Shown: piece after piece, positions 9,862 to 24,925 of the stretch | Position numbering within the stretch: the stretch's first letter is position 1 | Layout: each line of letters opens with the position of its first letter | Origin: Chrysonvirus as5 | Taxonomy: Duplodnaviria > Heunggongvirae > Uroviricota > Caudoviricetes > Straboviridae | Virus record (IMG/VR): IMGVR_UViG_650627007_000001 | Location: 171,172 to 225,268 of that record | Direction: 5' to 3' (one strand) | DNA: 54,097 nucleotides | Notes under the pieces: generated by a model | The model's input: only the letters and a program-made list of their open reading frames with translations | Database searches by the model: none | Told to the model about the DNA's origin: nothing | Position numbers and translations under genes: made by a program

Positions 9862-9982
9862 TGGAGGGGAAGGTGGGACTCGAACCCACATACGACAGTT
9901 TGATTTCGATTTAGTTGCCGTAAAGATTCTTGACAGAATCCGCTTTTTCGACTATTGCCTATACCGATTCGGCTACTTCCCC
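9862..9982 (-). ncRNA. tRNA scaffold with ~50-nt structured insert in the anticodon loop (Y-like module)
   Basis: Acceptor GGGGAAG/CTTCCCC+TCCA, D arm, T arm GTGGG-TTCGAGT-CCCAC; insert AAAAAGC-GGATTCT-GTCA-AGAATCT-TTACGGCAAC. Confidence 0.8.
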
Positions 9983-10000
9983 AAATTTTTAACAACACTA

Positions 10001-10115
10001 TGCTGGCGGTCTGGGATTCGAACCCAGGTTACAGGCTTAACAGGCGAGTATTTGTTGCGGAATACATTCTTATCAGAATGAATTTTACAGTGTCCTACCA
10101 CTAGACGAACCGCCA
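10001..10115 (-). ncRNA. Second tRNA scaffold with related anticodon-arm insert
   Basis: Acceptor TGGCGGT/ACCGCCA, D arm GTCT-AGTGGTA-GGAC, T arm CTGGG-TTCGAAT-CCCAG; insert AAAATT-CATTCT-GATA-AGAATG-TATTCCGCAAC. Confidence 0.8.
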
Positions 10116-10131
10116 GCATAATGCTGTTTGT

Positions 10132-10251
10132 TGACGCGATGCTGGATTCGAACCAGCGACGTTTCTCGGTGTGCCCACACTATACCGGATTCGAACCGGT
10201 CCCGATACTTCTCTGCGATCAGAGGCGCTCTCCCACTGAGCTAATCGCGTC
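10132..10251 (-). ncRNA. tRNA-like RNA containing two T arms
   Basis: GACGCGAT/ATCGCGTC acceptor, D arm GCTC-AGTGGGA-GAGC, T arms ACCGG-TTCGAAT-CCGGT and GCTGG-TTCGAAT-CCAGC. Confidence 0.75.
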
Positions 10252-10273
10252 AACAAAACAATCTTCTCATAGT

Positions 10274-10732
10274 TTACTTAGTTTGTAAACCTTTTTCTTT
10301 AAACTTTTTCACAGCAAGCATGAGGCTACAAATAGTTGACTGTATTTCGCCACTGTCTTTCAGAATCTTGCCGTTACCTCTGGTAATCAGAGTATAAACG
10401 TCTTTGATATCGTTCTGCATGATCGTTTTGATCATTTCATCACTATATCGAAGTTGCATGGTAAAGTCTATCATTTCTTTACCGGAAATGAGGTCTACCG
10501 ATAGTGTCACACCATGAACATAATCAGTGTTAACAACAACACGAACGATGCCATTGCCGTCGATTGAGATCATCGGAACACCAAGCGGACGTTCGTAATT
10601 GCGACGACACTCGGAATCTTTCTTTGCGAGATCGTCGCGACGTTTCGACTCGGCACTGACGCCAGTCAGTTTACCCTCTTCCACAATATCAGCATAGCTT
10701 TGCGGAAACAGAAACTTGATTAAAGATTTCAT
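10274..10732 (-). CDS. Hypothetical protein
   Basis: Start MKSLIK after GAGGA RBS. Confidence 0.8.
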   Translation of the reverse strand: MKSLIKFLFPQSYADIVEEGKLTGVSAESKRRDDLAKKDSECRRNYERPLGVPMISIDGNGIVRVVVNTDYVHGVTLSVDLISGKEMIDFTMQLRYSDEMIKTIMQNDIKDVYTLITRGNGKILKDSGEIQSTICSLMLAVKKFKEKGLQTK

Positions 10733-10760
10733 GATAACTTCCTCTCGTTTAGATGTCGCC

Positions 10761-10788
10761 ATTATAGCGACATCGGATTATCTGTCAA
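10761..10788 (-). promoter_or_regulatory. Early promoter TTGACA-N16-TATAAT
   Basis: Consensus hexamers; -10 box lies between 8-bp inverted repeats. Confidence 0.8.
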
Positions 10789-11127
10789 GTAGAAATACGC
10801 GATAACGATAAAAACTTTACAGACAATGTGCAGCATTTGATCCGCGAACAAGTTGATCTTGTTCTTGCACTTCATGAGATCGATAATCCAGTGGCTAATA
10901 AGCTCTGCCAAACTTAGCCAGACGCTCTGGGTTACGACATATACCACGACTGCATGAGTAGATGCGTGGGCAGTGAGCCAGTAAATCCAATGCACTCCAT
11001 AGAGTGGAGAGTTGACTGGATGCTTCCCCCTTGCGACGCTATCCGGTTGTAACGTGTAATCGGCAACAAAGTGGCCAATCATCAGCAGATATAAGATCTC
11101 AAACAATTTTGTCCATTTCTCCCACAA
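10762..11127 (-). CDS. DUF3307-like membrane protein
   Basis: GHFVADYTLQ, AH..TH, HWIID..K, DQMLH motifs. Confidence 0.8.
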   Translation of the reverse strand: MWEKWTKLFEILYLLMIGHFVADYTLQPDSVARGKHPVNSPLYGVHWIYWLTAHASTHAVVVYVVTQSVWLSLAELISHWIIDLMKCKNKINLFADQMLHIVCKVFIVIAYFYLTDNPMSL

Positions 11128-11359
11128 CGACCCGATACAGGTCTTCCGGTTCTTTCAGAACATCAGCGCCGATTGTGATGCTGAATGCTGCTTTCATTGT
11201 AAAAGCGTCCGAAATGATCTCGAATCGATAATCACCTTGTTCCAGATCTGTCCACAATTCATATCCAGCGAACGTTTCCGTCGGATGTTTGTCTTGCCAA
11301 TGATGGAGCAGCATAGATGCGGCTTCGCACATTTCCCGCATTTCTTTACAAGTCAGCAT
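11099..11359 (-). CDS. Hypothetical protein
   Basis: ORF track, co-oriented run. Confidence 0.65.
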   Translation of the reverse strand: MLTCKEMREMCEAASMLLHHWQDKHPTETFAGYELWTDLEQGDYRFEIISDAFTMKAAFSITIGADVLKEPEDLYRVVVGEMDKIV

Positions 11360-11573
11360 CTTTGCCCTTAACGATTAAGTAAACGTAATGACCATTTTGT
11401 GTTTGTTGCCGAGGATGAAATTCATATCCCAACTCCAACATATGACCATGATCGTTTGGACTTAGATAGTCATGTTGGTGGCAGTTGTCTTTGTCTGTGG
11501 TTACCAGTTTGTATCCAATCAATTCGATTGCGCGACTGAACTTGGTAATTTCAAGTGAATAATCAAAGGCCAC
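11346..11573 (-). CDS. Hypothetical protein (probable GTG start)
   Basis: ORF track; in-frame GTG at 11573 after AAGGA. Confidence 0.55.
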   Translation of the reverse strand: MAFDYSLEITKFSRAIELIGYKLVTTDKDNCHQHDYLSPNDHGHMLELGYEFHPRQQTQNGHYVYLIVKGKDADL

Positions 11574-11847
11574 TGTTCTTTCCTTGCATACGAGCGCGAC
11601 AGTTCGCAAGATGATTTTCAATCACGCGATCATCAGAAAACAGCTTCATATTCAGCGTGGTATAGAAGAAATCTCCTTCGCCCGCGCGAGAATGCAGCTT
11701 GAATTCCAGATCGCCATTGTCCGACATAGTTACATCATCAGCTTCCCAATTTTGATCGTCGTTCAGCTTGATTGAATCGGCATAGTTTACCAACGCCTTC
11801 TTGAATTCGTTGATGTTGTATATGAGTAAGTTGATATTAGTTGGCAT
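11563..11847 (-). CDS. Hypothetical protein (94 aa)
   Basis: ORF track, coupled. Confidence 0.7.
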   Translation of the reverse strand: MPTNINLLIYNINEFKKALVNYADSIKLNDDQNWEADDVTMSDNGDLEFKLHSRAGEGDFFYTTLNMKLFSDDRVIENHLANCRARMQGKNSGL

Positions 11848-12088
11848 TTGCTTCTACCATTTCTTTTACGCGCTCGATATGAGACGCGATTGATTGTTGA
11901 CTACGAAACAGATCGATATGCATACGATGCACCAGATCTTTACCATCATGTTCGAATCGAATCAAGAAGTTATTCTTGGTCATATCGAATCCGATATCAT
12001 CTTTGATGAATCGAATGCCATGGATTTTCTCCATCGCTTCGCCGTACATTTTCACATTTGCGAAAATAAATTCAATGATGGAACTCAT
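11837..12088 (-). CDS. Hypothetical protein (83 aa)
   Basis: ORF track, coupled. Confidence 0.75.
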   Translation of the reverse strand: MSSIIEFIFANVKMYGEAMEKIHGIRFIKDDIGFDMTKNNFLIRFEHDGKDLVHRMHIDLFRSQQSIASHIERVKEMVEANAN

Positions 12089-12089
12089 T

Positions 12090-23842: not shown

Positions 23843-23848
23843 GAAATT

Positions 23849-23923
23849 TGGTAGTCCCGAATGGTATCGAACCATCCACATCCGCGTTATCAGCACGGCG
23901 CTCTACCTCTGAGCTACGGGACT
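23849..23923 (-). tRNA. tRNA-Ile(GAT)
   Basis: Cloverleaf, CCA. Confidence 0.95.
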
Positions 23924-24445
23924 ATTTCTTCGAAAAACATCACCTTTGTAATGTTGATCCATAAATCGTTTAGTCTGAGTGTGCGATACACCCCAAACAT
24001 TAGAAACTTTAACAACCCAACCACGTTTATTTAAATCGATATGGGAAATTGCATCCAATCTAGCTTTGATATCTTCTTCCTTGAAAGCGTGTAGTTCAGC
24101 GCATCTTTTGCCGCCAACTTTGCCACCCTTTCTACCAATCTCTGTTCTTTCAGCAGAAGTCATATTATTAAACGTGACCGGAGTATTTTTGCCGTTGGTA
24201 TATGCATCTTTAGCATTATCACTCAGAGAGCCGCAATACACATTACTAGGAGAATATGGTCCAGTATCACCAATTCTACACATAACATATGGCTTATCTT
24301 TTGTTCTACCACGTAGATGATATTTACCAGTTGATTTCCACCAATCTAGCCAAGTATCAAATGTGAATTGCCAATCAATGCTTCTATTTTTCGCCTTGCG
24401 TTTCTGATTTTCATAAGCATAGCGATCTGGGTCAATGTCGTTCAT
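23903..24445 (-). CDS. Putative free-standing HNH (His-Me finger) homing endonuclease
   Basis: R.IDWQFTFDTW..WW...RGR...YVMCRIGDTGPYSPSNV.C....N pattern; C-terminal GRKGGKVGGK. Confidence 0.7.
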   Translation of the reverse strand: MNDIDPDRYAYENQKRKAKNRSIDWQFTFDTWLDWWKSTGKYHLRGRTKDKPYVMCRIGDTGPYSPSNVYCGSLSDNAKDAYTNGKNTPVTFNNMTSAERTEIGRKGGKVGGKRCAELHAFKEEDIKARLDAISHIDLNKRGWVVKVSNVWGVSHTQTKRFMDQHYKGDVFRRNSPVAQR

Positions 24446-24469
24446 AAAACTCTCATGTTAATAAAATCT

Positions 24470-24574
24470 GGAACACTTTTACCACCGTCCAAGGACTCGT
24501 TTGTCGCGAGCTAGGGAGTCGAACCCCATCGTTTTCTTAGAAGAGAAAATTAGTATTGTTTGCTGAAATGTTCC
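24470..24574 (-). ncRNA. YrlA-like RNA: terminal helix with motif plus circularly permuted tRNA-like domain
   Basis: GGAACA-TTTCAGCAAA ... GGGG-TTCGACT-CCCT ... AAAAG-TGTTCC. Confidence 0.7.
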
Positions 24575-24599
24575 TTTGACAAATCTTAAATCATCATTG

Positions 24600-24681
24600 C
24601 GGAGGAGGTTGGACTCGAACCAACATAGGGTTATTACCCGCAGATTAACAGTCTGCCGCTCAACCTTTGAGCCACACCTCC
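24600..24681 (-). tRNA. tRNA-Asn(GTT) with long variable arm, CCA not encoded
   Basis: GCAGA-CTGTTAA-TCTGC; V arm GGGT-AATA-ACCC; G73. Confidence 0.85.
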
Positions 24682-24707
24682 GCAATAACGACTTTCAAAT
24701 AAGAAAC

Positions 24708-24771
24708 GGAATGAACTTTTAAGGCATATTTCCAATAATTTGCTTTTTAAGTTGTTTGCTGAACTCATTCC
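24708..24771 (-). ncRNA. Small hairpin RNA with TTCAGCAA/AAAAG module
   Basis: GGAATGAG-TTCAGCAAAC ... AAAAG-TTCATTCC; own promoter. Confidence 0.7.
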
Positions 24772-24782
24772 AATCTTTGTTT

Positions 24783-24811
24783 ACTATACACTACTATTTA
24801 GTGAGTGTAAA
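24783..24811 (-). promoter_or_regulatory. Nested promoter: TTTACA-N17-TATAGT with late CTAAATA inside the spacer
   Basis: gtttacactcactaaatagtagtgtatagt on minus. Confidence 0.75.
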
Positions 24812-24835
24812 CAAAGACTTCTTAATTTTTTAAAC

Positions 24836-24889
24836 AGGCTGACTTTTGGTTTCTATCCGCAAGAAAGTTTTGATTGCTGAACGCAGCCT
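24836..24889 (-). ncRNA. Small hairpin RNA with TTCAGCAA/AAAAG module
   Basis: AGGCTG-CGTTCAGCAATC ... AAAAGT-CAGCCT. Confidence 0.7.
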
Positions 24890-24896
24890 TAAAATC

Positions 24897-24925
24897 ATCT
24901 TAACACATCATCCATGTGTTGTAAA
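24897..24925 (-). promoter_or_regulatory. Early-type promoter TTTACA-N17-TAAGAT
   Basis: -10 box ends 7 nt before the AGGCTG stem. Confidence 0.7.

Follow-up and report, generated by a model that had tools for sequence, protein, structure and literature searches.

Whether a protein-coding gene and a scatter of small RNAs among the tRNA genes of a large phage form one functional unit is the question raised by the final 54 kb (54,097 nucleotides; hereafter the window) of the complete 225,268-bp viral record of Chrysonvirus as5. The DNA of the window is 80-83% identical to that of the T4-like Aeromonas phages Aeh1, Ah1, PX29, and avDM12. All 25 tRNAs detected in it by ARAGORN lie on the minus strand, which also encodes tk, a gene of the DUF2828/DUF7788 family, and numerous small open reading frames (ORFs), and the RNA elements considered here sit within this tRNA region. 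An original prediction made from the sequence had proposed that the DUF2828 protein and these RNAs correspond to Ro60 and its Y RNAs. Our analysis suggests that the gene quite probably encodes a ring-shaped Ro60-like RNA-binding protein, and that five of the RNAs, which share a structural module we call the handle, are its Y-RNA-like partners.

Five small RNAs share a handle module

A single module is common to five minus-strand RNAs; in it, a covarying helix adjoins U-N-C-N-GCAA on one of its strands and AAAA(G/U) on the opposite one. In the open form (RNAs A, B, and C), the helix is built from the two ends of the RNA itself, with UUCAGCAA right after the 5' strand and AAAAG right before the 3' strand. 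In the capped form (TL1 and TL2), AAAA(G/U) is followed by a 6-7 bp hairpin with a tetraloop and then by UUUACGGCAA or UAUUCCGCAA, the whole being placed inside a tRNA-shaped body. Topologically, the two forms are one object: one helix strand runs 3' into U-N-C-N-GCAA, and its partner strand is preceded by the A-run. Across the Aeromonas relatives, the letters of the handle are constant and its helices vary on both sides.

RNA A (24833-24892, minus strand, as for all RNAs below; ~55 nt) begins with AAG and ends with CUGU, and carries between these a 5-bp helix with a bulged C and a hairpin loop UGCGGAU, so as to read AAG-GCUG-CG-UUCAGCAA ... AAAAG-U-CAGC-CUGU; a G-C pair of its helix is replaced by C-G in all four relatives. 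RNA B (24705-24774; ~66 nt) consists of GGAAUGAG-UUCAGCAA, a variable hairpin, and AAAAG-UUCAUUCC-G, and in PX29 two positions of its helix are changed on both sides. RNA C (24466-24578; ~107 nt) reads GGAACA-U-UUCAGCAA ... AAAAG-UGUUCC, and its handle helix encloses a permuted tRNA; two-sided changes across relatives affect the handle helix twice and the T-stem and the hairpin once each.

The capped handles are embedded in larger structures. TL1 (9862-9982) is a complete tRNA body, with acceptor, D-arm, 5-bp anticodon stem, T-arm, and encoded CCA, in which ~50 nt including the capped handle (9915-9948; AAAAAG-C-GGAUUCU-guca-AGAAUCU-UUACGGCAA) take the place of the anticodon loop. Among its relatives, the handle hairpin changes from A-U to U-A and the motif appears as ACGGCAA, ACCGCAA, or ACAGCAA. 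TL2 (10001-10117) is likewise tRNA-shaped, with a long acceptor helix, a D-arm, and a T-arm, and its handle (10055-10087) reads AAAAU-UCAUUCU-gaua-AGAAUG-UA-UUCCGCAA, followed by a weakly paired CUGUUAA loop that equals the anticodon loop of the phage's own tRNA-Asn. The mean column identity of TL2 is 94% over the five phages compared, with compensatory changes in the T-stem, and neither Rfam nor ARAGORN calls it a tRNA. A cloverleaf with a 7-nt anticodon loop, as in RF00005, is formed by neither TL1 nor TL2.

These bodies could also be read as ordinary decoding tRNAs carrying a small intron, with the common motif acting as a splicing signal. TL1 would fit this description, since it scores 46.3 bits against the Rfam tRNA model with a single 50-nt insertion replacing the anticodon loop and bears a CCA end, and its homologue is recorded as a tRNA-Leu joined from two pieces in PX29 and as a tRNA-Val in Aeh1. 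Yet these annotated identities conflict between close relatives, the sequences flanking the insertion restore, by reading, no 7-nt anticodon loop with U33, and the same motif and helix also occur in free-standing RNAs that have no tRNA body. The known tRNA introns of bacteria and phages are group I introns of ~200 nt or more, and we consider the intron reading very improbable.

A sixth RNA, element D (21985-22134; 148 nt), reads GGAUUCAC-UACAGCAA ... GUGAAUCC, with a terminal 8-bp helix followed by UACAGCAA (UUCUGCAA in relatives), and has no A-rich 3' strand. It is 87-90% conserved in relatives and has no Rfam match. The prediction of six minus-strand elements with a common motif thus holds as to their positions, and five of them share the full handle; element D has half of it, finds no support in the open-handle model described below (12.3 bits, E = 2.2), and is a doubtful, possibly divergent member of the family. 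All seven small RNAs of the region (A, B, C, D, TL1, TL2, and TL0, which lacks a handle) are kept in Aeh1, Ah1, PX29, and avDM12. A look-alike on the plus strand (19416-19461) was taken as a chance occurrence because it lies within an ORF and is missed by the same model.

The handle family is associated with DUF2828 genes

We searched for further handle RNAs in 80 viral contigs chosen solely because they encode a DUF2828 homologue of 40-48% identity. With a crude descriptor made up of helix, T.C.GCAA, A-run, and helix, we obtained 51 open-form matches on the gene's strand, as compared with 6.2 in shuffled sequence. An alignment of 25 short RNAs, 23 of them from other phages, has the consensus (U)AAG, 6-8 bp helix, N, U(U/A)CAGCAA, variable hairpin, AAAAG, N, helix, C(U/C)G, and was used to build a covariance model of the open handle (R1). 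On the whole 225-kb genome, R1 finds only RNAs A, B, and C, and nothing on the other strand. Across 1.49 Mb, it gives 144 matches at E ≤ 1, all of them (144/144) on the same strand as the DUF2828 gene; RNAs A, B, and C score 48.6 bits (E = 8e-7), 52.5 bits (E = 1e-7), and 32.6 bits (E = 0.002) in this search. Restricting E to ≤ 0.01 leaves 97 matches; 94 of these lie outside the window, and 50 of the 80 contigs have at least one. Over half of the outside matches (51/94, 54%) fall within 500 nt of the DUF2828 gene, a zone that makes up 6.7% of the flanking DNA, and 37 of the 80 loci have a handle match this close. The 93 distinct matches, in an alignment fitted to the model, have 91% of their helix cells paired and 215 two-sided changes as compared with 66 in shuffles; none of the 93 has lost the closing G-C pair. 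Both covariation and co-occurrence with DUF2828, points on which the original prediction was to be judged, were observed.

The capped form appears to be much less widespread. A covariance model of the capped handle (R2), with which TL1 and TL2 score 50.5 and 54.4 bits, has true cases only in this phage, in its Aeromonas relatives, in contig L077, and perhaps in contig L020; the remaining matches span the junction between two tandem open-form RNAs and were rejected, and a plain regular-expression scan for the capped form proved too noisy. Rfam at gathering scores returned tRNAs only, with no family matching the handle elements significantly, and we found no published paper describing handle RNAs.

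Among 50,697 phage records, 696 encode a DUF2828 homologue, with phages of the Felix O1, KVP40, and P100 types represented. R1 matches lie next to the gene in Campylobacter phage CP81, Mycobacterium phage Snenia, Listeria phage LP-083-2, and coliphage wV8, and complete genomes with both the gene and R1 matches include this phage, Aeh1, PX29, KVP40, nt-1, and wV8. In contrast, the complete genomes of T4, T5, and Aeromonas phage 44RR2.8t have neither a DUF2828 gene nor an R1 match, the tRNA region of T4 included. T4 carries 8 tRNAs, and T5 and 44RR2.8t carry tRNA genes as well, so that their lack of both gene and handle argues against a mere link to tRNA arrays. These observations support the view that, in phages of Proteobacteria, Campylobacter, Listeria, and Mycobacterium, the handle module accompanies DUF2828 genes.

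In Listeria phage LP-083-2 (contig L097, 6001-12569), three handle RNAs precede the DUF2828 gene, and genes for an HD phosphohydrolase, an RtcB-like ligase, and an RNA ligase follow within 5 kb, an arrangement that recalls the Salmonella rsr-yrlBA-rtcBA operon. A tblastn search with the RtcB, RNA ligase, and HD phosphohydrolase of LP-083-2 identified no such neighbours in the 80 viral loci, and hence no general link to RNA repair emerges.

The DUF2828 protein has a predicted Ro60 architecture

The DUF2828/DUF7788 gene (12576-14009, minus strand) encodes a protein of 477 aa with N-terminal helical repeats and a C-terminal vWA domain with a complete MIDAS (metal ion-dependent adhesion site). The predicted assignment to DUF2828 was confirmed by hmmscan (E ≤ 0.01), with matches to DUF7788 (4.8e-50), DUF2828 (4.1e-28), and, weakly, VWA_2. 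The protein belongs to a family of 6,209 representatives at E ≤ 0.001 (~6,200 clusters at 50% identity), which PHROGs labels "RNA-binding protein". In Ro60/Rsr, the Y RNA is bound on the outer surface and RNA ends are held in the central hole. An AlphaFold model of the phage protein, built from 45 homologues, reached a predicted local distance difference test score (pLDDT) of 90.8, and the 13 PDB entries that match it best are without exception Ro60/TROVE structures and include Ro60 of Thermus phage phiLo. The best five Swiss-Prot models matched are Ro60 of Deinococcus, mouse, frog, human, and worm; telomerase p80, itself a TROVE protein, comes next. The predicted helical-repeat ring and subsequent vWA domain align with Ro60 over the full length, and the MIDAS residues D270, S272, S274, T344, and D376 (DxSxS, T, D) are invariant in the 45 homologues. 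Searching PDB sequences with phmmer returned nothing at E ≤ 10. By prediction, then, the protein, although ~50 residues shorter, would have the whole architecture of Ro60 without detectable TROVE sequence similarity, which agrees with the fold implied by its earlier description as a TROVE-vWA protein and departs from that description at the level of sequence.

Some GenBank records already name the DUF2828 protein "RNA-binding" or "Ro-like", and its likeness to Ro60 is thus not new; the RNA family and its pairing with this protein are. None of the five papers found to mention DUF2828 deals with its function.

Expression signals and genomic context of the handle RNAs

Promoter-like sites of the T4 early type, recognized as consensus matches only, precede RNA A (24897-24925, minus strand; TTTACA, 17 nt, TAAGAT, with TG before the -10 box) and RNA B (24783-24811, minus strand; TTTACA, 17 nt, TATAGT). 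They end 7-8 nt ahead of the AAG of A and ahead of B, and the site upstream of A would begin transcription at that AAG. Downstream of RNA B lie a tRNA-Asn (24599-24681) and then RNA C, with no terminator found between them. A GTTTACA box resembling these sites precedes, by reading, the TL0-TL2-TL1 cluster. From these signals we infer that the handle RNAs would be expressed from early-type promoters.

The same arrangement bears on two other readings of the handle. It might serve phage tRNA operons as a signal for processing or punctuation, for instance as an entry site for a nuclease, as a former of 3' ends, or as a weak terminator, and be tied to tRNA arrays rather than to DUF2828. Such a signal would explain why tRNA clusters contain or border the elements in this phage and in over half of the 60 loci in which tRNAs were scanned for, why B, tRNA-Asn, and C look co-transcribed, and why U-rich tails follow the helices of A and B. 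It would need neither invariant single-stranded letters and tRNA-like payloads nor a promoter of its own as in RNA A, however, and, besides being at odds with the tRNA-bearing genomes that lack gene and handle, it does not account for the position of the handle in Snenia, right at the gene with one tRNA in the 11 kb fetched, or in CP81, between the gene and a cluster of five tRNAs. We regard this reading as highly unlikely.

Alternatively, the handle might be a cis-acting leader, bound by the DUF2828 protein or another factor on its own mRNA for autoregulation, with no free RNAs being made. The frequency of matches near the gene would be expected under this model, as would the 59 of 94 matches that lie upstream of it on the same strand. 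But 35 of the 94 lie downstream, a locus may hold up to 7 copies, no handle adjoins the gene in the present phage, where a promoter-like site of its own precedes A, and two handles form part of tRNA bodies that end in CCA. An exclusively cis-acting role consequently seems to us only a slight possibility; autoregulation could coexist with free RNAs.

The pairing of protein and handle RNAs as a Ro60-like system has its own difficulties. In this phage the partners are not adjacent, the RNAs lying 2.3 kb downstream and 10.5 kb upstream of the gene. No match at E ≤ 0.01 was found in the DNA fetched for 30 of the 80 loci. Many DUF2828 genes lie in tRNA arrays, so that another factor linked to such arrays could be the real partner of the RNAs. 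The seed alignment was picked with a descriptor that requires a helix and the match alignment was fitted to the model, which inflates the pairing statistics and leaves strand bias, adjacency, and new matches as the independent evidence. Finally, hmmscan gave no match of the protein to Pfam TROVE (PF05731) at E ≤ 0.01, and kinship with Ro60 therefore rests on predicted structure. All of these points weigh against the proposed partnership. Taken together, the results nonetheless make a Ro60-like particle that has a Y-like RNA family of its own, dispersed in this phage and with five members and three types of payload, the most likely interpretation.

Diversity and possible role of the payloads

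Outside the handle, the RNAs differ widely, and the three kinds of payload predicted at the outset (plain loop, permuted tRNA, and full tRNA) are all present and recur among the matches of other phages and in contig L077. R1 matches fall into two length groups, 52-88 nt and 97-129 nt. In the long matches, a closed hairpin is surrounded by a T-loop and a loop of GGUA type, making them permuted tRNAs of the layout described for YrlA (PMC4201824); they include RNA C and amount to 12 of the 97 matches. In RNA C, the fold comprises a T-arm (UGGGG-UUCGACU-CCCUA), a closed acceptor-like hairpin, and a GG-containing D-like segment. Of the 28 loops of 7 nt predicted among the short matches, 7 have the form CU-NNN-AA that is the mark of an anticodon loop (CUGUUAA and CUUCUAA twice each, CUCUUAA, CUUUUAA, and CUCAUAA once each), where a rough estimate from base composition gives an expectation well below one. 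A capped handle within a full tRNA body is a rare form, found again in the unrelated contig L077 (4881-5008), where a handle replaces the anticodon loop of a type-II tRNA body with a CCA end.

Ro60 genes of bacteria and phages adjoin genes for Y RNA partners, of which at least one in each species has a tRNA-like domain (PMC4201824, PMC12135203), a precedent that supports the proposed partnership, as RNA C and the 11 other long matches repeat this layout. By analogy, we infer that the DUF2828 protein would bind the handle RNAs and act with them as a particle. The element recognised by the protein would be the handle, that is, a 6-9 bp helix of free sequence with an invariant closing G-C pair, single-stranded U-N-C-N-GCAA 3' of the helix, and AAAA(G/U) 5' of the other strand. 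The rest of each RNA would be an exchangeable payload, namely a small hairpin in A and B, a permuted tRNA in C, and a whole tRNA body in TL1 and TL2, and would offer a tRNA-like surface to a third party, which might be enzymes that bind tRNA, exoribonucleases, or anticodon nucleases of the host. Early in infection, the particle would serve as a tether or decoy in tRNA and RNA surveillance; the original prediction had named decoys and scaffolds as possible roles.

Comparison with known small RNAs

Ro60 and Y RNAs are established in animals, bacteria, and some phages, and in species with YrlA at least one RNA, encoded beside the gene, carries a tRNA-like domain (PMC4201824). The underlying 2014 survey by Chen et al. 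covered only genomes annotated with a TROVE protein (PMC4201824). Among phages, Thermus phage phiLo encodes, next to a canonical Ro60, two Y-like RNAs (Yrl1 and Yrl2) that carry a CGAA motif (PMC12135203), and a survey of jumbo phages reported TROVE proteins with a tRNA-like partner in a few phages (PMC7824862). The present system resembles these in the predicted helical-repeat ring and vWA domain with MIDAS of its protein, in having several small RNAs per genome near the gene and on its strand, and in RNAs whose 5' and 3' ends form a helix adjoining a conserved unpaired motif. Some handle RNAs also share with YrlA a tRNA-like module of T-arm and D-arm, as in C, where it has compensatory changes, and not in A or B. 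There are also differences. Handle letters are U-N-C-N-GCAA opposite AAAAG, whereas Y RNAs have a bulged helix of CGAA type, and most handle RNAs, unlike YrlA, are ~60 nt with a small hairpin only, others being capped and placed inside a full tRNA body. In keeping with the prediction that the motif differs from the canonical Ro-binding site, no YrlA (RF02553) match reached the gathering score. Two weak matches (17 and 31.6 bits vs. 69) were rejected, as they span junctions of adjacent tRNAs or tRNA-like RNAs, taking a T-arm from one and the D-arm of the next gene.

In layout, the handle also resembles the Class I RNAs of Dictyostelium (RF01414; Kjellin et al. 2021), which are ~60 nt long and have a 6-bp terminal helix, an 11-nt motif after the 5' strand, an AAG start, and a CUGU end (PMC7919456). 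Supplementary sequences give GTTGAC-C-TTACAGCAA...GTCAAC-TG (as RNA, GUUGAC-C-UUACAGCAA...GUCAAC-UG), with the motif CCTTACAGCAA (PMC7919456). Class I RNAs are reported from Dictyostelia only, with a DUSE promoter and the RRM protein Rnp1A as known binder (PMC7919456). Points of likeness between the two groups are, besides length, the pairing of a 5' G with the C in a CUG(U) 3' end, a covarying 6-bp helix of free sequence built from both ends, the motif (CC)UUACAGCAA directly after the 5' strand, and an A-run ahead of the 3' strand, with a variable middle between. The supplementary Class I sequences can be lined up with RNA A, and the PX29 form of TL1 reads UUUACAGCAA. RNA A and most of the 25 phage RNAs in the alignment have the C, C, A, A of positions 6, 9, 10, and 11 of the Class I motif, together with the helix and the G...CUG ends; the U at position 3 is not kept. 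The Rfam model of Class I RNAs gave no match on A or B at E ≤ 10, and on C it gave 14.9 bits (E = 2; gathering score 41.5) with the wrong 3' partner, the best of the four Rfam matches listed. The matches listed for the protein model in Swiss-Prot include no Dictyostelium DUF2828 protein, and those listed in the Atlas are viral. What we see is a likeness of layout and not membership, and layout does not prove common descent. In a more far-reaching scheme, DUF2828 proteins and handle RNAs would constitute a third, very large branch of Ro/Y RNA systems in phages and eukaryotes, with Class I RNAs as the eukaryotic form of the handle, binding a DUF2828-type protein, and the phage payloads, from anticodon-loop mimics to permuted tRNAs and whole tRNA bodies, as decoys or tethers against host defence nucleases that target tRNAs; we consider this scheme as a whole doubtful.

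The handle RNAs can also be compared with T4 rnaC and rnaD, which are likewise small stable non-tRNA RNAs inside a T4-type tRNA cluster, one of them with a T-arm-like hairpin. No handle is visible in these by eye, however, in line with the T4 genome search above.

Other features of the tRNA region

TL0 (10133-10250, minus strand), a tRNA-like RNA of 118 nt, is the first gene of the TL0-TL2-TL1 cluster. Its acceptor helix and D-arm are normal, the anticodon arm is replaced by a hairpin whose loop has 4 nt, and there are two T-arms; ARAGORN names its first 75 nt tRNA-Ala(cgc), and it is 85-92% conserved in the four relatives. A tRNA-Glu(ttc) at 22610-22706 (minus strand) is 97 nt long, a 22-nt stretch (ACGGCTAGGATATCGCCCTTTC) being tandemly doubled across its D-arm and anticodon arm. 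The Aeh1 gene has the normal 76 nt, and the copy in the window may be a broken tRNA or an assembly slip. Also within the tRNA cluster, an ORF of 141 aa (21232-21657, minus strand) occupies the position of "major head protein" ORFs (T4 gp23-like) in Aeh1, Ah1, and PX29, and resembles a short gp23-like fragment or paralogue.

Unusual tRNA calls occur in related records as well. The PX29 record (contig L084, 34390-34489) lists a 100-nt "tRNA-Lys" joined from two pieces beside gene 57B. Its place is taken in the window by a plain tRNA-Arg(tct) (28235-28309), and the PX29 gene may be another tRNA body bearing an insert. Contigs L003, L004, L008, L010, L014, L058, L077, and L078 have tRNA-Ile(tat) calls of 92-95 nt, far above the length of a normal class I tRNA, and several such DUF2828 contigs also have a tmRNA or suppressor-type tRNA calls (Pyl cta, SeC tca) in their arrays.

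Implications

Ro60 with its Y RNAs is a classic RNA-surveillance particle and a human autoantigen, and in bacteria and phages it is known only where the protein bears a TROVE annotation. The evidence presented here points towards a far larger sister family of Ro60, with an RNA family of its own, that would work alike. If this is true, a large "domain of unknown function" would gain a function, and the odd "tRNA-OTHER", intron-containing, and unannotated tRNA-like genes in many phage tRNA arrays would be accounted for. In this family, the unexplained Class I RNAs of Dictyostelium also gain a candidate protein partner. The modularity of the payloads suggests a general route by which phages may display tRNA look-alikes, and thereby bears on the arms race around anticodon nucleases.

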